This document shows positions 4,260-59,349 of a stretch of 64,000 nucleotides of DNA, one piece after another (position 1 is the stretch's first letter; every line of letters starts with the position of its first letter). The DNA is taken from positions 586,629 through 650,628 of the forward strand of contig CP066687.1 in NCBI GenBank assembly GCA_016432405.1, read 5' to 3'. Under the pieces are notes generated by a model, which made no database searches, had not been told where the DNA came from, and was given only the letters and a program-made list of their open reading frames with translations. The position numbers and the translations under genes are program-made. The stretch comes from Candidatus Giovannonibacteria bacterium (GTDB taxonomy: Bacteria; Patescibacteriota; Minisyncoccia; UBA11713; 2-01-FULL-45-33).

Positions 4260-4281
4260 GCCTTTTTTATTTTTACAAAAA

Positions 4282-5355: not shown

Positions 5356-5367
5356 TTTAAAGCTTAT

Positions 5368-6239: not shown

Positions 6240-6244
6240 ATCTT

Positions 6245-7957
6245 CTATATTACTTCCAACAGCTCTTCCAGTCCAATCTTGCCTTCCAGCACCCTCAAAA
6301 TGCCGTCTTGACGCAAAGTTGTCATCCCTTGCTTCCGGGCCTCTTCTTCTATTTTCGGCTCCGGAGCTTTTTCAAGGATAAGCGCCTCCAGTTCCTTGGT
6401 TGCTCCTAAGACCTCAAAAATGGCGATGCGCCCTTTTGAGCCCTTGGGGCAGGTTCCGGAAATCTTCGGCCGGTAAATCGCTTTCGGCAGTTTGATTTTT
6501 TTCTTTACGCCGTCGGGCATCGCTTCAATCTCTTTTAAAATGACTTCTTTCGTCTTGCCTTCCAGCGGCACCTCTTCTTTGGAATCTTCGCAAAGCGTCC
6601 GCACCAGCCGCTGGCCTATGGCCATAATCAAAGTCGGGGCGATGAGATACGGGTCCACCCCCATGTCTATGAGCCGGGGAATAACCCCGACCGCGGTGTT
6701 GGTATGCAAGGTCGCTAAAACCAGATGCCCGGTAAGGGCGGCGTGTATGGCAAGCTGGGCGGTTTCTTTGTCGCGTATCTCGCCTACCATTATAACATCC
6801 GGGTCCTGGCGGAGAATATGCCGAAGGCCCTCCGCAAAATCGTAGCCGATTTCCGGCCGGACCTGCGATTGGTTTATGCCCTGGATGGCGTATTCAACAG
6901 GGTCTTCCAAACTGACCGTGTTCCAGCGGTCTTCGTTTAAGGATTTAAGCATCGCGTAAAGCGTGGTTGATTTTCCGGAACCGGTGGGGCCGGTGAGCAA
7001 AATCAGGCCGTAGGGCTCGGAGAGGGCGTTTTTGACTTTTTTGTAATCGTCTTCGGAAAAGCCGAGGTCGTCCAGGGTCTTAATCCCGGTCTCGGGGTCC
7101 AAGATGCGGATGGCGACTTTCTCGCCGAAATAAGTCGGGAAAGTGGAAACCCTGAAATCAATTTCGCGGTTTTCAATTCTCGCGCTGAAGCGGCCGTCCT
7201 GGGGCTTTCGCTTTTCGTCCAGCTGCATATTGGTGAGGATTTTTACGCGCGAGACAATAGAGTCATGCACTTTCATCGGCAAAAAAAGACTGGTATATAG
7301 AATGCCGTCCACGCGGAAGCGAACGCGGAGCTTATCCCTGCCCGGCTCAATGTGGACGTCGGAGGCCCGGCCCTCGGTCGCGTGCCGCAAAATCACCGCC
7401 ACCATTTTTGTGATGGGGGCTTCTTCAACGAACGAGGTTTCCGCGCGCTCAAGCGCTTTCGGCAAAGTCGGCTCCTCGGAAAGCGCCACCTCAAGCTCGC
7501 CCAAAACTTTCGTCACCTCGCCGGAGATGCCTTTGTACTCTTCAAGCACGCCAGCCAGGTCGCGGCGCGAGATGAGGAAAATTTTAAACGGCTGGTTGAG
7601 CCGGGCCGCGATAAATTTAAGCGCTTCTCTGGCCTCAATGTTGTCTGGGTCAATCATGCCGATGGAAATCATCCCGTTTTCCTGCCCCACCGGCGCGAAC
7701 TGGTAATGCCGGGCGGATTCCTCCGGAATATTTTTTAAAAGGTCAAAAGGAATTTTTTTGCCTGCCAAGGACAGCACCGGGATGCCCAGCGCCTCGCCTT
7801 TGGCGTTTAAAATTTTCTGCTCGTCCAATCCGCGCTCCAAGAGCTCCTCTTCAATGGAGATGTTTTTGCTCCGCGCCATTTTTTTTACTTCGGTCGCCTC
7901 CTGGAGCGTAACGTCTCCGGAAGCCGCCAAAACGTCTAAAATTCCCTTCGCCGCCAT
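6245..7957 (-). CDS. pilB: type IV pilus assembly ATPase PilB / GspE
   Basis: 570 aa; N-terminal T2SE_Nter-like region, LLTGPTGSGKSTTLYAML Walker A motif, and tetracysteine-like region. Confidence 0.85.
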   Translation of the reverse strand: MAAKGILDVLAASGDVTLQEATEVKKMARSKNISIEEELLERGLDEQKILNAKGEALGIPVLSLAGKKIPFDLLKNIPEESARHYQFAPVGQENGMISIGMIDPDNIEAREALKFIAARLNQPFKIFLISRRDLAGVLEEYKGISGEVTKVLGELEVALSEEPTLPKALERAETSFVEEAPITKMVAVILRHATEGRASDVHIEPGRDKLRVRFRVDGILYTSLFLPMKVHDSIVSRVKILTNMQLDEKRKPQDGRFSARIENREIDFRVSTFPTYFGEKVAIRILDPETGIKTLDDLGFSEDDYKKVKNALSEPYGLILLTGPTGSGKSTTLYAMLKSLNEDRWNTVSLEDPVEYAIQGINQSQVRPEIGYDFAEGLRHILRQDPDVIMVGEIRDKETAQLAIHAALTGHLVLATLHTNTAVGVIPRLIDMGVDPYLIAPTLIMAIGQRLVRTLCEDSKEEVPLEGKTKEVILKEIEAMPDGVKKKIKLPKAIYRPKISGTCPKGSKGRIAIFEVLGATKELEALILEKAPEPKIEEEARKQGMTTLRQDGILRVLEGKIGLEELLEVI

Positions 7958-8041
7958 GGAACTATTTTAGCATATTGACAAAATCAAGCCATTTGCTAAG
8001 AATAAGGCAGACAAAATAAACGAAAGAAAAGGAGAGCGGAT

Positions 8042-8296
8042 ATGGGACTTACTGAACTTGCGGCAAAACATTGGGAAGGTATGCAAACCGCGGATAGAAA
8101 AAAGCTTCTGCGAGAACTGGAGTTGACCGCTCACGATCTTGACGGCTACACCGTCGCCGAGGCTTCCGAGACCGCTGACTTCAATTCGTTGCCACTTATT
8201 GTCCGCGGTTGCCTTATCACGGCAGTAACTCTTGACGGGTTTTCCGTAGAGGAGCGCTTATCCCGAGTTGAAAAAATGCGAAAATCGCGAGATTAA
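8042..8296 (+). CDS. hypothetical protein
   Basis: Upstream TTGACA-16-TAAGAAT promoter-like sequence and aaaaggagag RBS; no recognised domain. Confidence 0.45.
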   Translation: MGLTELAAKHWEGMQTADRKKLLRELELTAHDLDGYTVAEASETADFNSLPLIVRGCLITAVTLDGFSVEERLSRVEKMRKSRD

Positions 8297-8403
8297 TCCG
8301 TACGGGTTCGCCCGGCGGTTTTTATTTACTAAAATTATGGAGCGATCGTTTTATAATTTTAGTGAACCGCACTATTTACCAACTTAGACGTCAGACGTCT
8401 AAA

Positions 8404-8432
8404 TGAGGGCGAGTCCACCCTCATTTTTTTAT
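8404..8432 (+). terminator. rho-independent terminator (atgagggcg-agtcca-ccctcat + T7)
   Basis: 7-bp perfect stem followed by a run of 7 T. Confidence 0.5.
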
Positions 8433-8442
8433 TTTTAGTTTT

Positions 8443-8727
8443 TTATCTCCTCCCCGGAGCAAAGGGGTTGGTCTTGCCTTTTGAAACGCCTTCCAAAGAT
8501 GTCTTTGGGGCGGCTTCCAATTCCAGAAATTGCGCGTCGTTGAAAAATGCCGTGTCTATTTTTATGTTTTTGAGCCGCCGCACCAGCTCCAACGCCGGCC
8601 CTTCCGTCTCGCCCCCCTGGCTTATGGCGACTTCCCCGCCGCCGGATGACAGCAGCCACCAAACCGCTCCCGCGATTAAAATTAAAACCGCTGCTCCGGT
8701 TATTATATTTTTATTCAGCATTGTCAT
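8443..8727 (-). CDS. hypothetical membrane-anchored pilus assembly protein (PilP-like?)
   Basis: N-terminal TM helix; start codon overlaps stop of upstream pilO-like gene (ATGA). Confidence 0.35.
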   Translation of the reverse strand: MTMLNKNIITGAAVLILIAGAVWWLLSSGGGEVAISQGGETEGPALELVRRLKNIKIDTAFFNDAQFLELEAAPKTSLEGVSKGKTNPFAPGRR

Positions 8728-9281
8728 CTTTGGTAATACGATTTGGCTTTTAAGGTGAATTCAAAAAGGTTTGAACTGCCGCCGGCGAAAGATATGTCGG
8801 TTATGTCCGCCACGCGCAGATTTTTCTCCAGCGCCGCCAAAAAGGACCTGAAGGATTCGTAGGACGCGGAAAGGGTGAAGCTGTAAGAAATAACGTTGGC
8901 GGCGGCTTCTTCCTTGACCGCTATCCTCGCCGGCCCCGCTGTCTGCGGGGCGGTTGCCTGGGAATCTTTTATGAAATCAATTCTCCTTAAGCGCACTCCC
9001 CTGTCTCTGGCTATTCTTTCCAGCGCCACCAAAATATTTCCGCTGTCGGGCTTAGGCGGAAGCAAGTCGTAAAGCCGTTCTACTTTGCTCCGCGGAATGG
9101 AATTGTAGGCATCTAAAAGCTCGTCCCTCAACCCTTCCAATTCGTGAAGGCGCGCGAGGGTGTCTTCAATCGCGCCGATTTCGGCGCGCAGCCCCGAAAC
9201 GTCGCTCCAGATCGGGCGCGCCGCCCAAAAAATCAAACCCACGGCGGCCGCCAGAAAAATTATTGTAAGAGCGGCTTTCAT
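8724..9281 (-). CDS. pilO: type IV pilus assembly protein PilO-like
   Basis: N-terminal TM helix plus coiled coil; position between pilN-like and pilP-like genes. Confidence 0.55.
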   Translation of the reverse strand: MKAALTIIFLAAAVGLIFWAARPIWSDVSGLRAEIGAIEDTLARLHELEGLRDELLDAYNSIPRSKVERLYDLLPPKPDSGNILVALERIARDRGVRLRRIDFIKDSQATAPQTAGPARIAVKEEAAANVISYSFTLSASYESFRSFLAALEKNLRVADITDISFAGGSSNLFEFTLKAKSYYQR

Positions 9282-9808
9282 TTTTTTAAAGCAATATTTA
9301 AAGTAAAGCCGACCGCTCCGGTTTCTCTAAGCGAAAGATTCCCAAAAGTGGCGCTGGCAACGTTCGGCAGCGCCTCAAAAGCGCTGGACTGGGCGGAAAC
9401 GTCGGCGTAGCTCGCCGCTTCCCCGGTCAAAGTAACAGTGTTTTTTTCGGCCGAGTAGCCGAAAGTGGCGAAACTTGCCGAGGGAATCGTATTGGCTTCT
9501 ATCATGTCAAAGGTCGCCGAGGTTTTTTGGTGGCCACGCAAAATCACCCGCGCTGCGGAGATAGAGTTGGAAACCCTTTCCAGCTCCGCTATCAAAGATG
9601 GTTCAAAAGCGACCTCCAGTTTTTGCAAAACCGATTTCTGGCGCGCAATATTGTTTACCAGATAGTTTCTGTAAAGATAAAGCCCGCCGGTCAGAAAAGC
9701 CGAGGCCATAAAAAGTATGAAAGCAATCCGCAAAAAAACTCCCAAACCGCCCGGGGCATAAATCTGGCTTTGCGGCAATTTTTTTGGTATTAAAGATTCT
9801 TCCGCCAT
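9278..9808 (-). CDS. pilN: type IV pilus assembly protein PilN-like
   Basis: Single N-terminal TM helix; start overlaps pilM stop; conserved pilMNO order. Confidence 0.55.
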   Translation of the reverse strand: MAEESLIPKKLPQSQIYAPGGLGVFLRIAFILFMASAFLTGGLYLYRNYLVNNIARQKSVLQKLEVAFEPSLIAELERVSNSISAARVILRGHQKTSATFDMIEANTIPSASFATFGYSAEKNTVTLTGEAASYADVSAQSSAFEALPNVASATFGNLSLRETGAVGFTLNIALKK

Positions 9809-20446: not shown

Positions 20447-20494
20447 CGGAGGGTTTTTGAGTTTTAGAGAATTACTCTATGCGAGCGGTGTTTT
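20447..20494. repeat. island direct repeat A (cggagggtttttgagttttagagaattactctatgcgagcggtgtttt)
   Basis: Aligns with 24279-24331; includes the last codons (PLA*) of the 931-aa gene and a ccctcc/ggaggg hairpin. Confidence 0.7.
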
Positions 20495-23272
20495 AATCAT
20501 TGATATTATTGAATCAATTTGCTCTCTCAATGTTTTATCTCTAGTTATTCCATCACTGATTTTCTCAAAAGCATAAAGCACAGTCGTATGATCCAGCCCA
20601 AATATCCTTCCAATGGAAGGGAAAGATAAACCTATCATCGTTCGAATAAGATACATGGCGATTTGTCTTGCATGGGCAATTGTGCCTTTTCGTGTCCTTT
20701 TCTTTATTTCTACCAAGCTAAGATTGTAGAATTGAGCAACCGACGCAACAATTTTTTTAGCAGTGAAATTTATTTCTTTCTCTCTTTCTTTAATATAATC
20801 TCTTGGATCTTCATCAGAGTAATAGTACTCACCATATTTTTTAGCAAGAGCTTTGTTAACTATTTGGCGAACGCGCTCCCGAGTAATCTCAAATCTTTGC
20901 GCAATCTCTTCCAAAGTGTGCGGTCTTTGATCATTAAGACCAAATCGCATTTCAACCATTTGTTTTTCTCGGTCCTCCATTCCCTCAACAAGGTCTTTAT
21001 CGCCAAGAGTTTGTCCCTGTTTTGCTTCTTCAAGTTGTTTTTCTCGTCTTGTTTCCCATGCCAACGGCTCTTCCACAAAATGGTCATAAATTCCTGGCCC
21101 AACCTCAAACTTCTTTTGAGCAATGTATACAGGGATATCGATAGCAGGTCCGTAATTTTGTGGAATAGCACCTTTTTGATAAGCTTCCGGGATCATTGCT
21201 CCTAGCGATTCGCTTAAAATAAGCTCCGCCAAATATAGTTGCGCTTCACGAGATTTCTCTACATCGCGCTTTTGTGGATTATCCCCAAAATAATATCTGT
21301 TGATGGGGTGATTCGAGTTGATAAGTATAAAGCCCTGAGTGGGACTTCCTAGCATTGGGTCGTAAGTGGTCTGTAGATGTTTTGGCACCCCATCATCAAA
21401 GTCCCAATCCTTAAATTTACCAGTCGGGCCGGTTGGCGAAGGTTTGATGCGATCCTTAATATCTATCCGGCATTGCGCCGAATAATCCTCAAAATTTGCC
21501 TTAACAATACCAGATTCATCATTCTTTTTGCCCACAAAAGGCACTTCAATTTTTGCCACTTGACTTGTGCTACGCATTCGGCGCGGCACCACGACCCATC
21601 TGTATTTTAGGGCTATTGAGTTGTTGGAACTTGAAAGAGAGATTTTTTTGCCGATCTTTATAACATTCAAATCAACATAAAGATTCAATGTGCTTTCTCT
21701 ATTCGCTGTAGTTCTTATGTAATCTGGACTAAAAACAATACCGTTTTCTGGATACACTATCTCCTCGGACACAATAGAAACCACCACCGAAGCGCTACGT
21801 TTTCCACTTTTTGCTTCTAATGTATCGGCAGTCCTCGCATTCGCACCAGTAACAATGATGGTCTTCACGAGGATGTCATTGCTATCCTCCGGTGCGTCGT
21901 GGACCTCAATTGTAGTCGGCGAAAAACCTATTTTACCTCTTGAAGATTTAAGAGATATTTTAGAACTGGGCTTGATAATTCGGGTATCAATGAATAGTTG
22001 TAGGCCATAGCGCCTTCCTGCAGTGATAGTTATGTTACTCCTAGCAAACTCAATACCTCCAACAGGGCGCGCCTTTTTCTTTATACGGATAACGCCGTTT
22101 GTATCTTCCCCAGTAAGTTGAGCATACAACTTGTTAAGTTCTTCAAGGGCCTTACGGTGATTCTCTTTTGTTATTTCGGAAACACCCTCGTCGGACCTTC
22201 TACGTCTTTCTTCATTGAGAATTGGGTATAACCAATCTTTCACTTCTAAGGCAAGTTTTTTGTAGAAGTCATGTTGGGTATTAAATCCATCCCGAGAATC
22301 GGAAAGTATCGCTTCGGGATGTTTCGGATCATTGATTTTATTGAGAATGATTTCTCTTGCTCCAGTCAGTTTCATGAAGCCGAAAAATTTGTCTGCACCC
22401 GGTAAGCTATCCCAACCGAAAAATGTTTGGGCGTATACGGCTTCTTTATTATCATGAACCAACAAGCCGTTTTCTCTTTCGTCTCCGACGATTTGAAGCG
22501 GCGTAGAAGATTTGTACAGTTCAACATCAATTTTCACGGGGTTATATTTCTCGAATTGCAAAGTAAATTCCTTATGCTCAACCAAATCACCCTTCGGAAA
22601 TTGATATCTAATAACACTTTTTTTAGTGCCTTTCTGGTCCTTGTAAATTAACTGGACCGAGCGTCTATCACTTGAGTTGATAAGGCGAAGCATGAAGAAA
22701 ACACCCACCTTTTTTATTAAGTTGTCATAGTCGTGTATGGTGGTATTATCAAGTACAAATTCGGCAACCGTTCCATGTTTGCTGTTTATACCCCATTCCT
22801 TAGCTAGTTTTTCTGCTAGCTCTTTTTGTTTTTCAACACTAATAAATGGTCTTTCTTTTTTCCAGTAGAAGTTGCAAATGGAGGCTTCGCCGTCCTTGAC
22901 AGATTTTATTTTCCCCTCGCGGTGGTAGAAAAGGACATCCGAAATACCTTGGCCAAAAATTCCTCTCGAACTAAAGCCTTCATAGGCCCCGCTCTTTGCT
23001 GCTCCATATTCTTTAAATTTCTCCTCTAGTTCAGCGGTAGTCATTCCTTGGGCATGGTCTGTTATACGGACTAATCTTTTCGTCTTATCAATAAAAATAG
23101 TAATCGGGAACACCTCTCCGCCATCGTCTTGGCTCGATTCAATTATTTTCCTGTAGCTATCATCGGAATTGGTAATTGGTTCTGTTAGGGTTTTCAGCAA
23201 GCTTTTCCCGACAGCATCCGAAAATTGCCGTTTTATATACCGTGAAGCATATTGTACTGCGATTTCGGTCAT
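20477..23272 (-). CDS. multidomain protein: N-terminal GHKL-type ATPase, central unknown, sigma-70 region-4-like HTH, C-terminal DnaA domain-IV-like DNA-binding domain
   Basis: Motifs read in translation: EPITNSDDS (N-box-like), DHAQGM (G1-like), GIFGQGISD (G2-like); EDREKQMVEMRFGLNDQRPHTLEEIAQRFEITRERVRQIVNKALAKK; SLVEIKKRTRKGTIAHARQIAMYLIRTMIGLSFPSIGRIFGLDHTTVLYAFEKI. Confidence 0.6.
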   Translation of the reverse strand: MTEIAVQYASRYIKRQFSDAVGKSLLKTLTEPITNSDDSYRKIIESSQDDGGEVFPITIFIDKTKRLVRITDHAQGMTTAELEEKFKEYGAAKSGAYEGFSSRGIFGQGISDVLFYHREGKIKSVKDGEASICNFYWKKERPFISVEKQKELAEKLAKEWGINSKHGTVAEFVLDNTTIHDYDNLIKKVGVFFMLRLINSSDRRSVQLIYKDQKGTKKSVIRYQFPKGDLVEHKEFTLQFEKYNPVKIDVELYKSSTPLQIVGDERENGLLVHDNKEAVYAQTFFGWDSLPGADKFFGFMKLTGAREIILNKINDPKHPEAILSDSRDGFNTQHDFYKKLALEVKDWLYPILNEERRRRSDEGVSEITKENHRKALEELNKLYAQLTGEDTNGVIRIKKKARPVGGIEFARSNITITAGRRYGLQLFIDTRIIKPSSKISLKSSRGKIGFSPTTIEVHDAPEDSNDILVKTIIVTGANARTADTLEAKSGKRSASVVVSIVSEEIVYPENGIVFSPDYIRTTANRESTLNLYVDLNVIKIGKKISLSSSNNSIALKYRWVVVPRRMRSTSQVAKIEVPFVGKKNDESGIVKANFEDYSAQCRIDIKDRIKPSPTGPTGKFKDWDFDDGVPKHLQTTYDPMLGSPTQGFILINSNHPINRYYFGDNPQKRDVEKSREAQLYLAELILSESLGAMIPEAYQKGAIPQNYGPAIDIPVYIAQKKFEVGPGIYDHFVEEPLAWETRREKQLEEAKQGQTLGDKDLVEGMEDREKQMVEMRFGLNDQRPHTLEEIAQRFEITRERVRQIVNKALAKKYGEYYYSDEDPRDYIKEREKEINFTAKKIVASVAQFYNLSLVEIKKRTRKGTIAHARQIAMYLIRTMIGLSFPSIGRIFGLDHTTVLYAFEKISDGITRDKTLREQIDSIISMIKTPLA

Positions 23273-24338: not shown

Positions 24339-24412
24339 TGGGCCAGGATGGATTCGAACCATCGCTCCCCGTCTTATAAGGACGGTGCTTTAAACCGCTA
24401 AGCTACTGGCCC
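24339..24412 (-). tRNA. tRNA-Ile (anticodon TAT)
   Basis: Manual fold: acceptor gggccag/ctggccc, D-stem gctt/aagc, anticodon loop cuUAUaa, T-arm gatgg-ttcgaat-ccatc. Confidence 0.65.
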
Positions 24413-38450: not shown

Positions 38451-39683
38451 TCAATAATCATAATTTTTCAAAATCTTATCTATTTTTTGAGCGATTTTTT
38501 TCATGTCTTCTTCTTTCATCCCTTGAGTAGTTACGGTGGCAGCGCCAATGCGGATGCCGGATGGGTCAAAGGGAGAACGGGTGTCGTAGGGAATCGTGTT
38601 TTTGTTCACGATGATTTTTTTTGCCTCCAAAAGCTCTTGCGCGGTTTTGCCGGAAAGCCCACTTGCCCAAGTGTCCACCAAAAATAAATGCGAATCCGTG
38701 CCGCCGGAAATTATCCGCCAGCCGCGCCTTTGAAGCTCGCGCGCCAAAGCTCGCGCGTTTCTCACAACTTGCCTAGCATATTTTTTAAAATTCGGGTTCA
38801 TTGCTTCTTTCAGGCAAACAGCCACTGCCGCAATCTGATTTTCGTGCGGCCCGCCTTGTAAACCCGGGAAAACTGCTTTATCTATTAAATCGCTTATTGA
38901 AAACCTCCCCTTTATCCCCTCCTTGGTAATGAGGGGAGGGGGGAGGTATACATCTCTTCTTGAAAAAATTATCGCGCTTCTCGGCCCGCGCAAGGTCTTG
39001 TGCGTTGTTGTTGTAACAACATCCGCGTATTTGAATGGCGAGGGATATACTCCGCCGGCAACGAGCCCAGCGAAATGCGACATATCCACCATTAAAAGCG
39101 CTTTCACCTCGTCGCAAATTTTTCTCAATTTTTTAAAATCAATAACTTGCGAATAAGCCGTAAATCCGGCGACTATCATTTTTGGTTTCGCGCGGCGTGC
39201 CGTTCTGCGGATTTCATCGTAATCCAAAAGTTCCGTTTTTTTTGAAACGCCAAAATGAATCCAATTCCAAAGTTTTCCGGTCGCCGAAACTTTATGCCCA
39301 TGCGTCAAATGCCCGCCCATTGAAAGCGACATTCCCATAATCTTCCCACCCAAAGGAACAAGTGCCAGGTATACAGCAAGATTTGCCGGCGAGCCAGAAT
39401 ACGGTTGGACATTAACGGACCATCCGCCGGCTGGCGGATTTAGAGATAATTTGAAAAGTTTTAGCGCCCGTTCCTTCGCCAAATTTTCAACTTTGTCTAC
39501 AATTTCATTTCCGCCGTAATACCTTTTACCCGGATATCCCTCGGCATATTTGTTTGTAAAAACAGAGCCCAGCGCCCGCAAAACATCTTTTGAAACATAA
39601 TTTTCAGACGCGATTAAATTAATCACGCCGCGCTGTCGTTTCTCCTCCAGTTTTATTAAGCGTTCTATCTCTTTATCTTTCAT
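38451..39683 (-). CDS. glyA: serine hydroxymethyltransferase
   Basis: PLP-binding region TTTTHKTLRGPR and conserved VFPGLQGGPHE. Confidence 0.9.
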   Translation of the reverse strand: MKDKEIERLIKLEEKRQRGVINLIASENYVSKDVLRALGSVFTNKYAEGYPGKRYYGGNEIVDKVENLAKERALKLFKLSLNPPAGGWSVNVQPYSGSPANLAVYLALVPLGGKIMGMSLSMGGHLTHGHKVSATGKLWNWIHFGVSKKTELLDYDEIRRTARRAKPKMIVAGFTAYSQVIDFKKLRKICDEVKALLMVDMSHFAGLVAGGVYPSPFKYADVVTTTTHKTLRGPRSAIIFSRRDVYLPPPLITKEGIKGRFSISDLIDKAVFPGLQGGPHENQIAAVAVCLKEAMNPNFKKYARQVVRNARALARELQRRGWRIISGGTDSHLFLVDTWASGLSGKTAQELLEAKKIIVNKNTIPYDTRSPFDPSGIRIGAATVTTQGMKEEDMKKIAQKIDKILKNYDY

Positions 39684-42628
39684 ATCACAAAATTTATAAG
39701 CCGTTTTGGGACAAAAATAATTTTACTCGGCTTCTTATCGCCCAAAATAAATTTAACTTTTGCGCGAGATAAAGACAAGCGCTCTGCCTCGGCTTCCGTG
39801 ATATTCACAGGCGCATCAAACTTGTCGCGTACCTTGCCGTTGATTTGGACGATCAGTTGGAAAGTGTTTTCTTGAATTAATTTCGCGTCATATTTTGGCC
39901 ATTCTTCAAGATGAATAGATTTTTTATTGCCGAGCTTTGACCAAATTTCTTCAGTAAGATGCGGAGCGAAAGGAGCGAGAAGTTTGAGAAAATAATAAAA
40001 TTCATTTTCAAAAACATCTCCTGTATGCTCATAACTCTCAAGCTCATACGACAAAACCATTAAATGAGAAATTGCCGTATTAAAATGGAATCCATCTATA
40101 TCCTCGCTTACCTTTTTTATGGCCTTATGAATGCTTCGTTGTATTGATTTAGTAGTTTGTTCATGATCGAATGGAAGATGTTCTTTAAGCATTTCTTCTC
40201 GGCTTTTGAATTTCTTTTTACTTATCTTATCGGCTAAGGAAAGAACTTTATTATCCAAAAATCTTTTAATTCCTAGAATCCCTTGCGGATTCCAAGGATA
40301 CGAGCCGGCTTCGTTATACGGGCCGATAAACGCCAAATACATCCGTACCGTGTCCGCGCCAAATTTGGCGACATATTCGTCCGGGTCAACCACGTTGCCT
40401 TTTGATTTGGACATTTTCTGTCCGTCCGGCCCTAAAATAATCCCGCGGTTTCTTCTTTCTTTGTACGGCTCATCCCCAAGCTCTTTGGGGATTAGCCCTA
40501 AATCGTACATCGCCTTATAAAAAAATCTGGAATACAAAAGATGCATAGTCGTATGCTCCGCGCCTCCGGAATATAAATCCACCGGCATCCAGTCTGCTGC
40601 CCTGAGCTTATCGAAGGGCTTCCTGCTGTTGTTTGGATCCGTATATCTCAAAAAATACCATGATGAATCAACAAAAGTATCCAGCGTATCGGTTTCGCGC
40701 TCGGCCTCGCCACCGCATTTCGGGCATTTCATTCTTAACCATTTTTCGGCTTTAGCTAAAGGAGATTTTCCTTCTCCGGTCGGCAGATAATCTTTGATTT
40801 CCGGCAATAAAACCGGCAAGTCCTTTTCCGGCGCGGCAACCGCGCCGCATTTTTCGCAATGAATTATCGGGATCGGCACTCCCCAATAACGCTGGCGCGA
40901 CACAACCCAATCCCGAAGTTTGTATTGCGTTTTGATTTGTCCACCAACAAACTTTGTAATTTCCAATTTTGCTTCTTCAGAATCTAGATTAGAAAATTTA
41001 CCAGAATCAATTAATTTTCCTCCGCCCAGCCAGATATAACTATCGCTTTTTAATCTCTCCCAAAACATTTCTGAATATCGAGAATCGCCAGCAACAGAAC
41101 CTTTTTTCAGAAACGGCAACACATCTTTTTCATTGACCCACAAGATATCATGCTTCTTGTATTCTTCATCTGACACAACTCCTTGCGTGCCGTCAATAAG
41201 CTCCAAATACATACCATATCCAAAAACATGCTGGTTTAAGTGCTTATGTGGAGCGTAAAAATCAGAAATATTTGGCCCACCAAGATATTTTACAAAACGA
41301 ACTTTTGTATATCCAGTTTCTTCTTTTATTTCCCGAATCATCGCATTTACATAATCTTCATTGGGTTCAACACCCCCAGTAATGAATCCGGTCCAACCAT
41401 TTTTCCAATCAAGCATCAAATATTTATTTTCAGACCAGTGCTTAACAATTCCAACCCCAATAATTCTATTTTTAGTTTCAACTTCAGATCGCGGTTTGCT
41501 ATTTTTAGTTGTGTCCAGAAAATATGGGGCGATAACATATTTCACCGGGATTTTAAACTTATTGGCAAACTCAAAATCGCGCTGGTCGTGCGCGGGGACG
41601 GCCATAATCGCGCCGGTTCCGTAACCCATAAGCACATAATCTGCGATCCAAATGGGAATTTCTTCTTGGTTTACGGGGTTAATTGCTTTGACACCCTTTA
41701 ATTCAACTCCCGTCTTTTCTTTTTCTTCTTTTTGCCTTTGCAGCTGTGTCTTTTGCTTGGCTTTCTTAATATACATTTGGACTTCGTCCCAATTTTCAAT
41801 TTTCAATTTCAAATTTTCAATTAAGGAATGTTCCGGCGCCAATACCATATAAGTCGCCCCGAAAAGCGTATCGGGACGAGTGGTAAAAACTTTAATTGAA
41901 AATTGAGAATTAGAAATTGAAAATTTTATCTCTGTGCCCTCCGACTTTCCTATCCAATTTTTTTGGGCTTCTTTGATTTCTTCTTTCCAGTTTAATTTTT
42001 CAAGACCAGCCAAAAGTTTTTCGGCGTAATCGGTAATTTTAAGCATCCATTGCTTCATATTTTTTTGCACAACCTCCGAGCCGCACCTTTCGCACTTTCC
42101 GCCAACTACCTGCTCGTTTGCGAGCACGGTTTTATCTTTTGGGCACCAGTTTACCGGCGTCTCCGCCTGGTACGCCAGCCCTTTTTCAAAAAGTTTTAAA
42201 AAAATCCACTGGGTCCATTTGTAATATTCAGGGTCGGAAGTAATAACTTCGCGGGCCCAATCAAAAGACGCGCCCATGGACTTAATTTGCTTCCGCATAT
42301 AATCAATATTTTCATAAGTCCATTTTTTGGGGTTAATTTTCCGCTGGATGGCGGCGTTTTCCGCCGGAAGACCGAAGGCGTCAAAACCGATCGGGAATAA
42401 AACATTTTTCCCCTCCATCCTTTTTTTCCGCGCGAAAATATCCGGCACGGAAAAAGCGTACCAATGGCCGGTATGGAGATTCCCCGAAGGATATGGAAAC
42501 TCTACTAAAGCATAAAAATTATCAGCTCCGTTTTTTTTGTCGGGCGTTTTATAAATCCCCGATTTTTCCCACTCCTTTTGCCATTTCTTCTCTATTTTTT
42601 TATGGTCATAGGAAGCCATATTGGCCAT
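39680..42628 (-). CDS. leuS: leucyl-tRNA synthetase (with inserted Nudix domain)
   Basis: HIGH-type motif NLHTGH, editing-domain markers TTRPDTLFGATY and AVPAHDQRDFEFA, KMSKS; Nudix box GGVEPNEDYVNAMIREIKEETGY inserted. Confidence 0.9.
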   Translation of the reverse strand: MANMASYDHKKIEKKWQKEWEKSGIYKTPDKKNGADNFYALVEFPYPSGNLHTGHWYAFSVPDIFARKKRMEGKNVLFPIGFDAFGLPAENAAIQRKINPKKWTYENIDYMRKQIKSMGASFDWAREVITSDPEYYKWTQWIFLKLFEKGLAYQAETPVNWCPKDKTVLANEQVVGGKCERCGSEVVQKNMKQWMLKITDYAEKLLAGLEKLNWKEEIKEAQKNWIGKSEGTEIKFSISNSQFSIKVFTTRPDTLFGATYMVLAPEHSLIENLKLKIENWDEVQMYIKKAKQKTQLQRQKEEKEKTGVELKGVKAINPVNQEEIPIWIADYVLMGYGTGAIMAVPAHDQRDFEFANKFKIPVKYVIAPYFLDTTKNSKPRSEVETKNRIIGVGIVKHWSENKYLMLDWKNGWTGFITGGVEPNEDYVNAMIREIKEETGYTKVRFVKYLGGPNISDFYAPHKHLNQHVFGYGMYLELIDGTQGVVSDEEYKKHDILWVNEKDVLPFLKKGSVAGDSRYSEMFWERLKSDSYIWLGGGKLIDSGKFSNLDSEEAKLEITKFVGGQIKTQYKLRDWVVSRQRYWGVPIPIIHCEKCGAVAAPEKDLPVLLPEIKDYLPTGEGKSPLAKAEKWLRMKCPKCGGEAERETDTLDTFVDSSWYFLRYTDPNNSRKPFDKLRAADWMPVDLYSGGAEHTTMHLLYSRFFYKAMYDLGLIPKELGDEPYKERRNRGIILGPDGQKMSKSKGNVVDPDEYVAKFGADTVRMYLAFIGPYNEAGSYPWNPQGILGIKRFLDNKVLSLADKISKKKFKSREEMLKEHLPFDHEQTTKSIQRSIHKAIKKVSEDIDGFHFNTAISHLMVLSYELESYEHTGDVFENEFYYFLKLLAPFAPHLTEEIWSKLGNKKSIHLEEWPKYDAKLIQENTFQLIVQINGKVRDKFDAPVNITEAEAERLSLSRAKVKFILGDKKPSKIIFVPKRLINFVI

Positions 42629-53223: not shown

Positions 53224-56200
53224 CTATTGCAGCGAAATTTTTGTTTCTTGAGATTCGGAAAATTGGAGAGACTTTAAGTTTGTTTCTTTAATTAAATCTT
53301 TTTCGTGTTTTTTGGCAATCTCTAAAGTTTCTCTGGGCAAGGAAATTTGGGCGGCAACTTTATCTTTTGGTTTAAGCCCCGCGGCCTTCCTTGCGGCTTG
53401 AATTTCGCGGATGAGGTCGCGGAGGATTCCTTCTTCGCGAAGTTCGGGGGTGATTTTGAGATCAAGCTCGAATGGAGGGGCATCTTGACCTCTGCCTTTT
53501 TCTAAAACAACTTCTTTAACATTGATTTCGTCTTTCAAAATTTTCACAAGTTCATCCCAATACTTCGGCGCTTTGCCGTCGTATTTAATTGAAAACCTTT
53601 GTAGTGGCTGGCGCACTCTTATATTTTCTTCCGCGCGTTTCGTTAATGCCGTAGACGCAAATGATCTTACAAAACTCATGCCGCTCAACAAATCCGTGTC
53701 TATTTTTTTATTTGAGGAAGGCCAATCCTCCAAATGCACGCTATTTTTATTCCCGAGCTCCATCCATATCTTTTCGGAAATAAACGGCGCGAAGGGCGCG
53801 AGGAGTTTTGAAACTTCACCCAAAAGATATGCCAAAACGGAGCTGGTTTCTCCGACGCTCGGCTTTGCCGAGGTCGGAGCCCCGACTCCTTCAGACGTCG
53901 GGGCTTTCATCACATCGCGAATTCTGCGGACATACCAGCGCGAGACATCTTCAACGATAAAATTTTCCAAATCACGCGCCGCGCCGACGATGTCGTAGGC
54001 GTCCAGTTTTTTTGTGACGATATTAATTGTTTCTTGGAGTTTGAGAGTGGCCCAGCGGTTAATCAATAACCCCACCCTCTCCCCCCCTCCCCTTCGTAAG
54101 GGGAGGGGGTTGGGGGAGAGGTTGCCTCCACCGCTCCTGCTGCCGCCAATTTTCTCGTAAAGTTTCCAAAATTGCAGCACGTTCCACAAAATCATGAAAA
54201 ATCTCCGCGAAGCGTCCTTGACGTCTTCATCTTTGAAAAATTTGGAATCCCACGGCTGGTTGATTGTAAAAAAATACCAGCGCGTCGCGTCCGCCCCGTA
54301 TTTTTCTATCAGCGCCATCGGGTCAACGACGTTCCCCAGCGACTTGGACATTTTCTTGCCATTTTTATCCAAAACATGCCCGAGCGAAATCGCGTTTTTA
54401 TACGGCGCACTTTTGCCCAAAAGAGCGCTTACGGCCAAAAGACCATAAAACCACCCCCGCGTCTGGTCTACCGCTTCAACTATATAATCAGCAGGGTAAT
54501 TTAATTTTTTAGTTTCAAACGGATAATGATTTTGCGCAAAAGGCATACTTCCGGAATCAAACCACGCGTCAATCACCTCCGGAATTCTCCGCATCTCGCC
54601 TCCGCATCCACATTTCAGTTTAACGTCGTCAATAAAGGGCTTATGTAAATCCAGAACTAAATTTTCGTCCCGCGGGAGCGCTGAAAAGTTAGGGCTTAAT
54701 TCAATAAACTCCGCGGTTTTTACAAACTGGGGGCGCTTTTCGCTTTCCAGAAGCGACTCCGTATTATTTTTGCCTTCCGCAGCCGCCCAAAGCATCCAAA
54801 TAGAATCCTCGTGGCTTATTATTAAAATAGTTTTATTTTTATACCTTGATTCAATCTCGGAAAACGCATCCCAAACCCTTTTTTTAACGTCCATAAACGA
54901 TTCCCCGCCCGGCGGAGCTTTTGTGAATTTATCCAACGGATTTTTATAATAAACGTGATATTTGGCAGGGTCAGTATCATCAAAAATCCCCCAATATGCT
55001 TCCCCGAACCGTGGGTCAATTTTGACATTTTCCTGACTCACCCCCAACTTTTCTCCAAGAATCCGCGCGGTTTCCTGCGCGCGCAAAAACGGCGAGGCGA
55101 AAATAATGTCTATCTTGATTTTTTTCTTGAGCATCTCATCTGCCGCCGCCCCAACTTGTTTTCTACCCCGCTCGGTGAGGCGGTAATGGTTTTTATTGAT
55201 GTCGCCATTGACAATGTTTTTTACATTGCTTTCTGCCTCGCCGTGTCTCATTACAAAATATCTGTTTCCGGAAGTCACTGCGCGTTTTTTTAATTCCTCA
55301 ATTGAGCCGACGGCTTCCCATTTTCCGCATCCGCCAGCTGGCGGACCGCACTTCCAAACCGGCAAGGGCGTTCCCCAAAACCGCTCGCGGGAAAAAGCCC
55401 AGTTCTTTTTTTCTTTCAGCCACTCGCCCATTCGCCCGTCTTTAATATGCGAAGGAAGCCAATTTATTTTTTGATTATTTCGCAAAAGCTTCGGCCTGAC
55501 GGCGTTTACATCCACCCACCAGGTTTTGCGCGCAAGGTACATCAGCGGATTTTTACATCGCCAGCAAAATGGATAATCATGTTCGTATGACTCGGTTTTA
55601 AAAAGAAGCCCGCGCGATTTTAAATCGTCAATTATCATCTTGTCCGCTTTTTTGAACCACAAATTATTCCACGGCTTTCCTGGAGTTTGCATAATGCCCT
55701 GTTCGCTTGTCGTAGCAAGAACAGGCAAATCATATTTTTTGGAGAGCGAAAAATCGTCGTCTCCGAAAGCCGGCGCTATATGCACTATTCCCGTTCCTTC
55801 CTCGGTTGAAACAAAATCTCCGGCAACAACACGGCATGGCGCCTTATTTGGATAAAGCGGTTCGTATTTTAGACCAACCAAGTCGGCTCCTTTGATTTTT
55901 TTAATAATTTTGTAATCTGCGCCGATGATTTTAATTCGCTCTTCGGCTAACACCAACTTCTCGCCTCTAATCTCTAACATCACATATTCAACTTTCGGAT
56001 TTACCGCCAAAGCAACGTTCCCCGGCAGAGTCCAGGGAGTTGTGGTCCAGACAAGAAAGTAAGAGTTTGGAAATTGGAAACCTGCCCGTCCGGCAGGCGG
56101 GTTGGAAATTGGAAATTTAACGTATACCGATTCTTCTTTTACTTCTTCATACCCCTGCGCAAGCTCATGTGAAGAAAGCGCTGTCCCGCAGCGCGCGCAC

Positions 56201-56709
56201 CAAGGAACAACTTTGTAGTCCTCGTACAAATACTTTTTTTGGGCAAATTCTTTGATAACCCACCAGAGAGATTCTACATAATTATTTTCATAAGTGATAT
56301 AAGGATGCGCCATGTCTATCCAAAAGCCCATCCGGGCAGTCAGCTTTTCCCAAAGTTCTTTGTATTTCCAAACCGACTCTCGGCATTTTTTATTGAAAGC
56401 GGCAACGCCGAATTTTTCTATGTCTTTTTTATTTTTCAGCCCCAAGGTTTTTTCCACTTCAACTTCAACAGGTAACCCGTGGGTGTCCCACCCCGCGCGG
56501 CGCGGCGCGAAAAAACCCTTCATGGTTTTGTATCTTAAAACTACATCCTTAAACGCGCGCGATTCAACGTGGTGCACGCCGGGAACGCCGTTGGCCGTCG
56601 GCGGCCCTTCAAAAAAAACGAAGTTTTTTTTACCCTTTCTTTTAGAAACGGACTTCTCAAAAATCTTATTTTTCTCCCAAAATTCCAAAATTTCCTTTTC
56701 ATCAAACAT
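53224..56709 (-). CDS. ileS: isoleucyl-tRNA synthetase (with inserted histidine-phosphatase domain)
   Basis: HIGH-type PTANGVPGVHH, WTTTPWTLP, KMSKSLGN; inserted domain carries FVMRHGEAESN and IISHEDS (RHG phosphatase signatures). Confidence 0.9.
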   Translation of the reverse strand: MFDEKEILEFWEKNKIFEKSVSKRKGKKNFVFFEGPPTANGVPGVHHVESRAFKDVVLRYKTMKGFFAPRRAGWDTHGLPVEVEVEKTLGLKNKKDIEKFGVAAFNKKCRESVWKYKELWEKLTARMGFWIDMAHPYITYENNYVESLWWVIKEFAQKKYLYEDYKVVPWCARCGTALSSHELAQGYEEVKEESVYVKFPISNPPAGRAGFQFPNSYFLVWTTTPWTLPGNVALAVNPKVEYVMLEIRGEKLVLAEERIKIIGADYKIIKKIKGADLVGLKYEPLYPNKAPCRVVAGDFVSTEEGTGIVHIAPAFGDDDFSLSKKYDLPVLATTSEQGIMQTPGKPWNNLWFKKADKMIIDDLKSRGLLFKTESYEHDYPFCWRCKNPLMYLARKTWWVDVNAVRPKLLRNNQKINWLPSHIKDGRMGEWLKEKKNWAFSRERFWGTPLPVWKCGPPAGGCGKWEAVGSIEELKKRAVTSGNRYFVMRHGEAESNVKNIVNGDINKNHYRLTERGRKQVGAAADEMLKKKIKIDIIFASPFLRAQETARILGEKLGVSQENVKIDPRFGEAYWGIFDDTDPAKYHVYYKNPLDKFTKAPPGGESFMDVKKRVWDAFSEIESRYKNKTILIISHEDSIWMLWAAAEGKNNTESLLESEKRPQFVKTAEFIELSPNFSALPRDENLVLDLHKPFIDDVKLKCGCGGEMRRIPEVIDAWFDSGSMPFAQNHYPFETKKLNYPADYIVEAVDQTRGWFYGLLAVSALLGKSAPYKNAISLGHVLDKNGKKMSKSLGNVVDPMALIEKYGADATRWYFFTINQPWDSKFFKDEDVKDASRRFFMILWNVLQFWKLYEKIGGSRSGGGNLSPNPLPLRRGGGERVGLLINRWATLKLQETINIVTKKLDAYDIVGAARDLENFIVEDVSRWYVRRIRDVMKAPTSEGVGAPTSAKPSVGETSSVLAYLLGEVSKLLAPFAPFISEKIWMELGNKNSVHLEDWPSSNKKIDTDLLSGMSFVRSFASTALTKRAEENIRVRQPLQRFSIKYDGKAPKYWDELVKILKDEINVKEVVLEKGRGQDAPPFELDLKITPELREEGILRDLIREIQAARKAAGLKPKDKVAAQISLPRETLEIAKKHEKDLIKETNLKSLQFSESQETKISLQ

Positions 56710-56730: not shown

Positions 56731-56994
56731 TTATGCTTTATAAAAATATTCTTTTAATCGACGCTTTAACATTCTAGCGCCAATATTGGTTTTTAGATAT
56801 TTTTCTCGACGCCCAGCATCAACCTTATTAAGACACGCCTCGTAATAAATAAGCCGCCACGGCCGAAATGGCTTGGTCGAAAAATTAAGTCCTCGATTAT
56901 GTTCATCCAACCTTTTCCTAAGGTCGTTCGTGTAACCTATGTACAACTTGCTATTTTTTATGCTTTCCAACACGTAAACATAGAACATAATCGG
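56731..56994 (-). CDS. GIY-YIG nuclease family protein (YhbQ-like)
   Basis: FYVYVLES...LYIGYTNDL...RLDEHN motifs; start likely MFYVYV inside the longer ORF. Confidence 0.7.
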   Translation of the reverse strand, partial: PIMFYVYVLESIKNSKLYIGYTNDLRKRLDEHNRGLNFSTKPFRPWRLIYYEACLNKVDAGRREKYLKTNIGARMLKRRLKEYFYKA

Positions 56995-57057
56995 ACGCGA
57001 AGTTTCACTACCTGGCATAAAAAAAGTATAACAAAAAAATAGCCGTTTCGGAAACGG

Positions 57058-57744
57058 CTAATGGACCCCGAGGCGGTTTTGTATCTCTTGCCGAAGAGTT
57101 GGGCGGATTTTGTACTCCGCCAAGATTATTTCCAAAAACTCCCTCTGCATTGCAGGCGCCACCCCTTGAGCCAAAATATACATAGCGATCCCTCCAACTT
57201 CTTCATCGTCAAAGCGAAACCCGCCAGCGCCCGGCTTGACCATGATGTAGCGCCTAGCGTGAGGGTAGTGCGCCACCAACCCCATGAGAATTTGCCGCCC
57301 CAGCGCTTGATAAACAGGGTCTGGTGCGCCACCGGTGCTTGCTACATTCATCATAAACCGCCGCCGGCAAAGGTCTTCTTTTTCCTGATTACGCTCCATC
57401 AACGCAGCGGCTTGGCAGAAAAATAGCTCCCGTCTGAACATGTGAATCTCCTGCTTCTCAACGTCGAGATACAGAATCGCCATCCTTAAAATGGCCTCCG
57501 CTTTCAGCGGCGAGTCGGGATATTTCTCCAAAAATGCGCTGAACCGACCCACCTGCGCCACGAGCATGGCGCGGTAATCCGGAACAAGGGTTCCATCCTT
57601 GATCCAAGGTATCGGCCCCGACGCCAACCCTTCAAACTCCGCAAAATCCGGCGGGCGCTCTTGGGCTTGCGCCAAAATCGAAGAACTGCCAGCCAACACT
57701 AAAAACACAAACAATCCAGCTATAAAACCGCTTAATTTGTTCAT
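57058..57744 (-). CDS. hypothetical secreted protein
   Basis: Signal peptide MNKLSGFIAGLFVFLVLAGSSSILAQA; visibly GC-richer than neighbours. Confidence 0.45.
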   Translation of the reverse strand: MNKLSGFIAGLFVFLVLAGSSSILAQAQERPPDFAEFEGLASGPIPWIKDGTLVPDYRAMLVAQVGRFSAFLEKYPDSPLKAEAILRMAILYLDVEKQEIHMFRRELFFCQAAALMERNQEKEDLCRRRFMMNVASTGGAPDPVYQALGRQILMGLVAHYPHARRYIMVKPGAGGFRFDDEEVGGIAMYILAQGVAPAMQREFLEIILAEYKIRPTLRQEIQNRLGVH

Positions 57745-57771: not shown

Positions 57772-59349
57772 TCACATCTTCTCCGGCGCGGCAATCCCCA
57801 TCAAAGAGAGAGTGGTTTTGATAGTTTTTTGCGCCGCAGAAACCAAAAATAGCCGGGCTTGCGTTAATTCGGGGTTTTTAGAATCAACCACATGATGCTT
57901 TTCATAAAAATTTGTGAAAGTTTTCGCAAGCTCATAAGCGTAGCGCGGCAAGCGGTGGGCTTGGTAATCTTCCGCGGTGTCTTCAATGATTTCCGTAAGT
58001 TGCAGAATTTTCTTGATGAGAGTAAGTTCTTCGGGTTGGGTTAGCAGATTGAGATCCACTTTTTTTGATTGCCCCCCTTTTTTTAAAATACTGCAAGCCC
58101 TCGCATGCGCGTACTGCACGTAATAAACCGGATTTTTCTTGTTTCTTTCTTTAGCCAAATCCAAATCAAAATCCATATGCGTATCCGGGCTTCTCTCCAA
58201 AAAAAACCACCGCGCCGCGTCCACACCGACTTCTTTCAACAAATCGTCCAAAGTTACAAATTCTCCTGTTCTTTTAGACATCCGCACCTCCTTGCCGCCG
58301 CTCGTAAGCCGCACCAGCTGTAGCACCCTAATGTTAAGTCTTTCTGGATTAACACTTAACGCTTCAATTCCTTTTTTCATTCTTTCAACGTAACCATAAT
58401 GATCCGCCCCCCAAACGTTAATCGCCAGATCAAACTTTCTTTTTATGAATTTATCGTAGTGGTACGCCAAGTCCGCCAAAAAATAAGCATATTCCTGATT
58501 TGATTTAACGACTACGGCGTCCCCCAGCCATAACGCTCCTTCTCTTTCTTTTAATGCATTTTTTTTATTTAAAAATTCCAATGTTTTTTTAAGTTCTCCC
58601 TTTTTGCGCATATCCGCTTCCGAAAACCAGACATCAAATTCAATGCCGGCTTTTTTGAGAGATTTTTTGATTTCTCCTAGCAAAATTTTTGCCGCGGCTT
58701 CCGCCGTTTTGCCTTTTAGTTTCTTTATGTAATCGCCCTTGTAATATTCTTCTTTCGCCGGTCCGCCAGCCAGCACTTTGCCCGCCGCCGCTAAAATAGA
58801 CTCGCCCAAAATTCTTATCTGGTTCCCGGCATCGTTAATATAGTACTCTCGCGTAACTTTATGCCCCACTGCCTCCAAAACATTCGCCAGCGCGTCTCCG
58901 TAAAACCCGCCTCGCCCGTTGGCCATTGTTAATGGCCCGGTGGGATTTGCCGAAACGAATTCGATATTTATCTTTTTTATCTTGGTCGAAAAACTCTCGG
59001 ATAAAAATTTTAGGTGTGGGCGCGCGCCTGCCCGTCTTCGGGCAGGTAGGGATAAGAAATTTTTAGATGAGAGTTTTTTGACCAACGCCCCGCGCGAAAT
59101 AAAAAAATTCAAAAATCCCGGACCGGCGATATCTATTTTTTCAACCCACTTAGCAATCCGATTGCTAAGTAACTTATTTTTCAAATCCTCCGCGACATCG
59201 CGCGGGTTTTTCCCAAGCTCCTTTGCCAATACCAGCGCGATGTTGGACGAGTAATCTCCGTGCTCCGGGTTATCCGGCTTTTCAGCGCTAAAAACCGCTC
59301 CCGGCGGCGTAACGCTTTCTATCCCCTTCCGTATCTGCGAGCGCAACAT
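57772..59349 (-). CDS. argS: arginyl-tRNA synthetase
   Basis: N-terminal Arg_tRNA_synt_N-like region, class I core, C-terminal DALR-type anticodon-binding region. Confidence 0.85.
   Translation of the reverse strand: MLRSQIRKGIESVTPPGAVFSAEKPDNPEHGDYSSNIALVLAKELGKNPRDVAEDLKNKLLSNRIAKWVEKIDIAGPGFLNFFISRGALVKKLSSKNFLSLPARRRAGARPHLKFLSESFSTKIKKINIEFVSANPTGPLTMANGRGGFYGDALANVLEAVGHKVTREYYINDAGNQIRILGESILAAAGKVLAGGPAKEEYYKGDYIKKLKGKTAEAAAKILLGEIKKSLKKAGIEFDVWFSEADMRKKGELKKTLEFLNKKNALKEREGALWLGDAVVVKSNQEYAYFLADLAYHYDKFIKRKFDLAINVWGADHYGYVERMKKGIEALSVNPERLNIRVLQLVRLTSGGKEVRMSKRTGEFVTLDDLLKEVGVDAARWFFLERSPDTHMDFDLDLAKERNKKNPVYYVQYAHARACSILKKGGQSKKVDLNLLTQPEELTLIKKILQLTEIIEDTAEDYQAHRLPRYAYELAKTFTNFYEKHHVVDSKNPELTQARLFLVSAAQKTIKTTLSLMGIAAPEKM

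Follow-up and report, generated by a model that had tools for sequence, protein, structure and literature searches.

Few enzymes are as conserved as the aminoacyl-tRNA synthetases, and it is rare for foreign enzymes to be nested, catalytically intact, within their catalytic core. For isoleucyl-tRNA synthetase (IleRS) there is a precedent for an additional enzymatic domain, an IleRS with an N-acetyltransferase domain that is represented by the NCBIfam model NF040702. The closest described relatives of the enzyme reported here are the type-2 IleRSs, which are eukaryote-like and mupirocin-resistant, and which include the T. thermophilus enzyme (1ILE) and P. megaterium IleRS2 (8C8U-W). The GXHH form of the class I signature in IleRS2 has been linked to mupirocin hyper-resistance (Brkic et al. 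2023, PMC10485003), and the region containing the zinc cysteines has been named the CP3 subdomain by Chung et al. (PMC7191050); structural papers on IleRS, the latter included, give the topology of CP3 and state no role for it in tRNA contact. Here we describe an ileS gene of Candidatus Giovannonibacteria bacterium (assembly GCA_016432405.1, contig CP066687.1, forward-strand positions 586,629 to 650,628) in which a complete histidine phosphatase domain is nested within CP3. All coordinates are those of this 64,000-nucleotide stretch, which is referred to as the window, and all of the window's genes and protein features whose coordinates are given below lie on its reverse strand.

A histidine phosphatase nested in a type-2 isoleucyl-tRNA synthetase

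The ileS gene (53224..56709) is one continuous open reading frame (ORF) that codes for a 1161-residue protein, identical to an NCBI entry named 'class I tRNA ligase family protein [Candidatus Giovannonibacteria bacterium]' (P0001) that derives from a 651,549-bp contig. The protein scores 852.6 bits against the ileS model TIGR00392 (cut-off 621.4), and Pfam recognizes tRNA-synt_1 (PF00133) in two stretches, the editing domain PF08264, Anticodon_1 and DUF5915. The best PDB match of the host is the type-2 enzyme 1ILE (802.6 bits), and its KMSKS motif (aa 786–790), editing domain and type-2 C-terminus (DUF5915) all identify it as a type-2 IleRS. The N-terminal part (aa 1–477; 55279..56709) is aligned to T. 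thermophilus residues 14–481 and contains the first half of the Rossmann fold, the CP1 editing domain, CP2 and the start of CP3; it also carries the sequence GVHH (aa 44–47; 56569–56580), a GXHH-type, non-canonical class I signature in place of HXGH. At this position GIHH is the consensus among 53 aligned IleRS relatives. The C-terminal part (aa 687–1161; 53227..54651) contains the WFDSG motif, KMSKS, the anticodon-binding domain and DUF5915. We also note that the window contains a tRNA-Ile gene with a TAT anticodon (24339–24412), an unusual way of reading AUA in bacteria, which normally do so with a lysidine-modified CAT tRNA; this tRNA may bear on how the IleRS described here recognizes anticodons.

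The two parts of the synthetase are separated by the inserted phosphatase domain and its C-terminal linker (aa 478–686; 54652..55278). In the alignment with 1ILE, query residues 4–478 correspond to T. thermophilus 14–481 and residues 686–1027 to T. thermophilus 488–818, such that a net insertion of about 200 residues replaces six residues between T481 and F488, inside the loop formed by the four zinc cysteines. The first half of this zinc knuckle (C454...C461; 55327..55350) is aligned to T. thermophilus C461 and C464 and holds a GPPAGG mini-insertion, and the second half (C700-G-C702; 54604..54612) is aligned to C502 and C504. All four cysteines are invariant among 117 full-length homologs aligned with MAFFT, and there is no break in G+C content at the insert junctions.

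The two tRNA-synt_1 stretches flank a match to the histidine phosphatase profile PF00300 (His_Phos_1, aa 485–649; E = 1.1e-31, 110.4 bits, gathering score 21.7). The assignment to branch 1 of the histidine phosphatases rests on this score together with an RHG motif, a second arginine, a second histidine and an acidic residue in an LxE motif. The RHG motif (R488-H489-G490; 55240..55248) provides the predicted phospho-accepting nucleophile H489; the second phosphate-binding arginine is R543 (55081..55083) and the second catalytic histidine is H633 (54811..54813), in an SHE motif. Alignment with the cofactor-dependent phosphoglycerate mutase (dPGM) of S. pombe places E570 (55000..55002) opposite the glutamate of its LNERYYG sequence, and it is thus E570, rather than the glutamate of the GGESF motif, that is predicted to be the catalytic acid. 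In the same 117 homologs R488, H489, S539, R543, E603, R611 and H633 are invariant, G490 is kept in 113, and position 570 is always acidic (glutamate in 88, aspartate in 29). The inserts average only 43% identity to that of the window, compared with 60% for the remainder of the IleRS; because the catalytic positions are nonetheless invariant or acidic, we conclude that there is purifying selection on catalysis.

The insert has the alpha/beta phosphoglycerate-mutase-like fold. Comparison with known structures aligns 182–184 residues to PhoE and PspA but only 139 to SixA, showing that a cap subdomain is present. An AlphaFold2 model of the full-length protein has a mean predicted local distance difference test (pLDDT) score of 87.6 and a predicted template modeling score (pTM) of 0.80, with pLDDT values of 93–97 in the phosphatase blocks and 88–95 in the linkers, and the synthetase and phosphatase are thus predicted to fold together within a single chain. 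The neighbors of the insert in PDB sequence and fold comparisons comprise PGM, PspA, PhoE, GpgP, CobC and F26BPase, with no clear nearest family, and scores against the more narrowly defined models fall short of their cut-offs: the CobC alpha-ribazole phosphatase model TIGR03162 gives 64.6 bits (cut-off 162.9), PspA (NF045917) 49.5 (cut-off 350) and NF011580, an equivalog model of the same CobC/PspA group, 48.8 (cut-off 250).

A preliminary description of this DNA, made without database searches, had proposed a PGAM/SixA-like histidine phosphatase within the IleRS at 54775–55266 on the basis of four motifs (FVMRHGEAESN, DIIFASPFLRAQETARIL, GGESF and ILIISHEDS). All four are present, and the proposal is borne out by the PF00300 match, by the 1ILE alignment and by the alignment of orthologs, in which the insertion site is the same and the catalytic residues are conserved. 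The proposed interval includes the Pfam core and leaves out the last approximately 40 residues of the domain and the linker. While the likeness to PGAM stands, as part of a PhoE/PspA/PGAM-like group, that to SixA does not: the match to the SixA model TIGR00249 (43.7 bits, cut-off 74.5) is confined to the N-terminal half, and the insert has the cap that the minimal SixA fold of about 155 residues lacks.

Conservation across the Patescibacteria

The best 120 IleRS homologs, recovered from NCBI, JGI, ENA and Logan assemblies and extending down to 46% identity, all contain PF00300, and they include proteins of Giovannoni-, Taga-, Nealson-, Wildermuth- and Paceibacteria. A scan of GTDB with one genome per species gave at least 63 loci, and in 59 of the 63 listed the phosphatase lies between the same IleRS segments and is the sole copy in the locus. 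Species with the domain include Wolfe-, Taylor-, Nomura-, Yanofsky-, Zambryski- and Spechtbacteria, together with records labeled Peregrinibacteria and Falkowbacteria. In one Yanofskybacteria species genome (L053) the gene is split into two overlapping ORFs (2588–4135 and 4107–6065) near the start of the phosphatase, which may reflect a frameshift, an error in sequencing or a gene that is truly split.

Stand-alone relatives, fusions and synteny

When the insert by itself was used for an exhaustive HMMER search of 1.84 billion representative proteins, 9803 matches with E<1e-3 were obtained, of which 861 have E<1e-10. The best 150 representatives were sorted by blastp against segments of the window's synthetases, which left four longer proteins unclassified. 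About 95 are IleRSs or IleRS fragments with the domain at the CP3 site, and about 50 are stand-alone proteins of 185–205 residues that match insert positions 4–194 from end to end; what is nested in the IleRS is therefore a whole gene's worth of sequence. A further search seeded with one of the stand-alone proteins (P0196) gave 318 stand-alone relatives, and those named by taxon are Patescibacteria or Candidatus Staskawiczbacteria.

All nine stand-alone phosphatase genes whose surroundings were looked up adjoin argS, ileS or both, and the usual order is argS–phosphatase–ileS. This order is seen for P0196 (L065/66; argS 4303–5997, phosphatase 6001–6570, ileS 6572–9367), P0212 (L067–69) and P0494 of Staskawiczbacteria (L075–77). 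The phosphatase gene lies directly upstream of ileS for P0181 (L070, with argS farther upstream), P0226 (L073/74) and P0160 (L064), and directly downstream of argS for P0178 (L078, where ileS is convergent and adjoining) and P0197 (L079). For P0157 (L071) it is also downstream of argS, with a 295-nucleotide gap, and the contig ends after the phosphatase; all of the other gaps between these genes are 0–10 nucleotides. The complete IleRSs encoded beside stand-alone phosphatase genes are 931–972 residues long and lack the insert. A few genes upstream of argS–phosphatase–ileS there is a free Nudix gene in L067/L068 (1–324), and in L075/L076 (1–5) a HIT-family gene, both within the same neighborhood of translation genes.

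Fusions are also found at places other than CP3. P0237 (L072) is an arginyl-tRNA synthetase (ArgRS) with a C-terminal phosphatase, which scores 405 against the argS model TIGR00456 (cut-off 262) and is encoded in the same smpB-infC-rplT...recO neighborhood. Several metagenomic proteins contain more than one phosphatase domain. P0188 and P0209 are IleRSs with two phosphatase domains each, at positions after the WFDSG motif and after KMSKS; the cluster represented by P0188 comprises six proteins, whose contigs reach 1.06 Mb. A further IleRS (L060) has two phosphatase copies (4061–4540 and 5153–5719) at sites other than CP3, P0155 is a ValRS-like protein with four phosphatase domains, and P0257 consists of two phosphatase domains in tandem. 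In the blastp comparison with class I segments no fusion partner other than a class I synthetase was found among the best 150 representatives, the four longer proteins being unclassified. This phosphatase clade is thus genetically tied to the class Ia synthetases as a neighboring gene, as a terminal fusion and as an internal insertion, and the occurrence of all three states constitutes both Rosetta-stone and gene-neighborhood evidence for a functional link.

The window has the same synteny as these relatives, in the order argS, ileS and a DUF11/CLIPPER protein gene. ArgRS, identified by domain search, is encoded upstream of ileS on the same strand (57772..59349), and the interval between the two genes (56731..57744) contains two ORFs and no stand-alone phosphatase gene. 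One ORF (56731–57018) codes for a 95-residue GIY-YIG nuclease-like protein (PF01541, E = 6e-18), and the other (57058–57744) for a 228-residue protein that has no family match and a higher G+C content (0.50–0.55). A GIY-YIG ORF likewise lies near argS in L071. When the window was searched by tblastn with the insert and three stand-alone phosphatases, only the copy in ileS was matched.

The Nudix domain of LeuRS and other hydrolase passengers

A second class I synthetase in the window carries a hydrolase. The LeuRS encoded at 39680–42628 contains a Nudix domain (PF00293) at residues 391–505 (41114..41458), with E = 9.1e-12, 45.6 bits against a threshold of 21.1, and a complete Nudix box (GX5EX7REUXEEXGU) that reads GGVEPNEDYVNAMIREIKEETGY. 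The Nudix domain is present in most of the best 120 LeuRS homologs (P0276–P0395). Passenger domains in the LeuRSs of Parcubacteria sit after the editing domain, with Nudix being the commonest; many homologs have an alpha/beta-hydrolase (PF12697, PF00561, PF06821) in addition, and a few have Ham1/ITPase (PF01725) or ASCH (PF04266) instead. Some close Giovannonibacteria relatives (87–88% identity, 786–789 residues) have no insert, from which it follows that the passenger domain was gained or lost recently.

The preliminary description had also noted the LeuRS Nudix insert and regarded the two passenger domains as a lineage-specific theme rather than an accident. Both observations hold: the Nudix domain is intact, and the IleRS insert is a consistent feature of the best homologs and of the listed GTDB loci. 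The theme is in fact broader than proposed, since it extends to other hydrolases in LeuRS and to the phosphatase in ArgRS, in a ValRS-like protein and in other IleRSs.

Probable function of the nested phosphatase and alternative explanations

Judging from these sequence comparisons, the insert is probably an active phosphomonoesterase that is functionally coupled to the class Ia synthetases. The ileS product would then be bifunctional, a type-2 IleRS with a branch-1 phosphatase of about 190 residues, bearing a PhoE/PspA-type cap, at the tip of the zinc-binding CP3. By analogy with the chemistry of the superfamily, a phosphomonoester would be held by R488, R543 and H633 and attacked by His489, giving a phospho-His489 intermediate while E570 donates a proton to the leaving group; the phospho-enzyme would then be hydrolyzed. 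The capped architecture favors a small substrate, and the recurrent association with IleRS, with ArgRS and with a ValRS-like protein favors one linked to aminoacylation; the most plausible candidates would be an adenine-nucleotide-type phosphoester or by-product in the vicinity of the synthetase, or else a tRNA whose charging is blocked by a phosphate at its 3′ end. Tethering would hold the phosphatase stoichiometric with the synthetase and keep its action local. The intact Nudix domain of LeuRS, kept in most relatives, provides a parallel case. As to origin, capture of the gene immediately upstream is plausible: the phosphatase gene and the 5′ part of ileS may have been duplicated in tandem, after which an internal deletion would have nested the upstream gene within CP3.

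Several observations weigh against this interpretation. The positions of fusion are variable (the CP3 loop, after WFDSG, after KMSKS and the ArgRS C-terminus), which argues against precise substrate channeling and fits co-expression or the neutral capture of a neighboring gene equally well. Two IleRS loci (L062 and L063) have neither the insert nor an adjacent phosphatase gene, and a strict complementarity between the insert and a neighboring gene, while it holds at the stand-alone loci, therefore fails at these two. Every specific NCBIfam phosphatase or mutase family scores far under its cut-off, and no substrate can be assigned from sequence. Finally, a neighbor-joining tree of 141 phosphatase domains is star-like and gives neither the number of insertion events nor a rooting among the stand-alone forms.

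It is possible, if less likely, that the domain is an ordinary small-molecule phosphatase of housekeeping or metabolism from an argS–ileS operon of a patescibacterial ancestor that was captured neutrally and moonlights on the synthetase with no link to aminoacylation. A stand-alone gene lying immediately upstream of ileS, or immediately downstream of argS, offers a simple mutational route, by loss of a stop codon for the ArgRS fusion and by duplication and deletion for the IleRS insertion, and in its fold and cap the domain is similar to metabolite phosphatases of broad specificity. The variable positions of fusion speak against a geometric coupling, and the unrelated hydrolases of LeuRS relatives, together with their absence from close ones, suggest that synthetases tolerate inserts. 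What neutral capture does not readily account for is that the fusion recurs with three class Ia synthetases, including the four-copy ValRS-like protein and IleRSs with the domain at other sites, that class I synthetases are the only partners found among the best 150 representatives (four longer proteins being unclassified), and that the tight argS–phosphatase–ileS order persists in divergent lineages.

A more specific proposal, which we regard as unlikely, is that the phosphatase is a dedicated partner of the class Ia synthetases and acts on tRNA, removing a 2′- or 3′-terminal phosphate from A76 and so allowing tRNA that is damaged or modified by toxins to be recharged, or else acts on a nucleotide by-product generated by the synthetase. 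Toxins of the toxSAS type add a 3′-pyrophosphate to the CCA end of tRNA, and in a charge-and-repair route this group might be trimmed by the Nudix domain of LeuRS or by a free Nudix enzyme, with the phosphatase taking the remaining phosphate. If this were true, the synthetases of Patescibacteria would be bifunctional 'charge and repair' enzymes.

It is improbable that the domain serves mainly as a scaffold, with the copies on IleRS, ArgRS and ValRS pairing to form a multi-synthetase complex and catalysis being secondary. Histidine phosphatases often dimerize, GST-like domains assemble the eukaryotic multi-synthetase complex, and both the addition of the same domain to several class Ia synthetases and the existence of the tandem protein P0257 are in keeping with such a role; however, a pure scaffold would have no need of invariant catalytic residues, and a stand-alone form exists.

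Still less probable is that the insert is the cell's dPGM, an enzyme of glycolysis, riding on IleRS. Its best PDB sequence match is the S. pombe PGM 1fzt (E = 1.6e-10), and its best phosphatase-type match in NCBIfam is dPGM_arch (NF038349), but the score for the latter is only 84 bits (cut-off 225), and that for the dPGM model PRK01295 (NF002339) is 50 (cut-off 316). In dPGMs a tyrosine and an arginine that follow the catalytic glutamate, a pair of arginines and an HGN sequence bind the second phosphate and the carboxylate, and these positions are not conserved: LNERYYG, WRRSY and AHGNS of 1fzt correspond to FGEAYWG, LDKFT and SHEDS of the insert, such that RR is replaced by DK and HGN by HED. 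On this alignment a mutase role is unlikely, and the top structural matches are all phosphatases, with no mutases among them.

Lastly, an assembly chimera or frameshift artefact, which the preliminary description had named as grounds for rejecting the insert and for which only the split ileS of L053 speaks beyond the prior, can be dismissed given the continuous reading frame, the recurrence of this architecture in independent projects (more than 120 protein clusters and the genomes of 59 species), the even G+C content and the confident AlphaFold2 model.

Palindromic hairpins and other features of the window

The window contains 18 short, GC-rich hairpins with perfect stems of 7 or more and loops no longer than 10, where 1.8 are expected from block shuffles. 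Among them are four in ileS (56075–56100, 55331–55344, 54085–54107 and 53880–53903), one in argS (59027–59046) and one in leuS (40829–40847). Those in ileS and argS that were checked are in frame and code for the peptides NPPAGRAG, GPPAGG, GGNLSPNPLPLRRGGGE and APTSEGVGAPTS in IleRS and PARRRAGAR in ArgRS. The GPPAGG within the zinc knuckle is coded by the palindrome CCGCCAGCTGGCGG and is unique to this lineage, its PPAGG columns being gapped in 92–96% of homologs; the two larger hairpin-coded insertions are the only segments of the IleRS model with pLDDT below 50. These in-frame hairpins resemble selfish insertions in coding DNA of the kind represented by the Rickettsia palindromic elements.

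A 931-residue protein encoded at 20477–23272 also has an odd architecture, with a long N-terminus outside any Pfam match; its only matches are to Sigma70 region 4 (aa 764–811) and a DnaA C-terminal helix-turn-helix (aa 839–905).

Novelty and significance

Literature searches for fusions of IleRS or other aminoacyl-tRNA synthetases with a histidine phosphatase or phosphoglycerate mutase, and for LeuRS with Nudix in Patescibacteria, returned nothing relevant, although this is not proof of absence, and we found no paper describing the argS–phosphatase–ileS arrangement. Neither a phosphatase insert nor Patescibacteria are mentioned in a 2026 survey of 96,219 IleRS sequences (bioRxiv 10.64898/2026.02.03.703510) or in the structural papers on IleRS that were consulted. 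A scan of NCBIfam turned up no curated exception model for phosphatase-bearing IleRSs, though the GNAT form has one in NF040702. The proteins themselves are already in public databases under generic names. Both the synthetase and the phosphatase superfamily are thus known, and it is their conserved combination that is new; the IleRS–phosphatase fusion appears to be undescribed in the searchable literature, and the phosphatase seems to be an enzyme partnering the class I synthetases that has not been described before.

Throughout a whole radiation of bacteria a phosphatase stays joined to IleRS and ArgRS, either physically or through linkage of the genes, and related fusions involve a ValRS-like protein. 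This points to a phosphoester substrate of importance to aminoacylation, to the integrity of tRNA or to the housekeeping of nucleotides in cells that are minimal and symbiotic. The separate gene, terminal fusion and internal insertion amount to a natural experiment on the origin of domain insertions from neighboring genes and supply ready-made constructs for biochemistry, and the CP3 site of IleRS2 is a permissive insertion point that could be used for engineering.

Comparison with known systems

Apart from the insert, the host aligns end to end with the type-2 IleRSs and shares with them the four-cysteine zinc site in CP3, the type-2 C-terminal region and the GXHH signature, while differing from 1ILE in the approximately 200 extra residues in CP3. 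The IleRSs with an N-acetyltransferase domain are a precedent for the type of architecture and not for the domain itself, as the window's protein scores 320.7 bits against NF040702 (cut-off 1999) and the passenger of that family is a GNAT, a different domain.

Among the phosphatases, PhoE of B. stearothermophilus (1H2E), PspA of Hydrogenobacter (4IJ5) and the mycobacterial GpgP (6S2Q) are only 23–28% identical to the insert. The motif after the second histidine is SHE(Y/D)P in the insert, whereas the broad-specificity branch-1 phosphatases have HG, and unlike PhoE, PspA and GpgP the domain is nested in a synthetase or encoded beside argS or ileS. The mycobacterial MutT1 (Rv2985) combines Nudix and histidine phosphatase domains on one polypeptide, but it is not related to synthetases and its phosphatase is of the short SixA-like type, unlike the capped insert of IleRS; the evidence does not support a common substrate for the two. 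The GST-like, UNE-I, WHEP and EMAPII modules of eukaryotic and archaeal synthetases are likewise lineage-specific additions to class I enzymes, but these are mostly non-catalytic and terminal, whereas the phosphatase described here is internal and has all of its catalytic residues.

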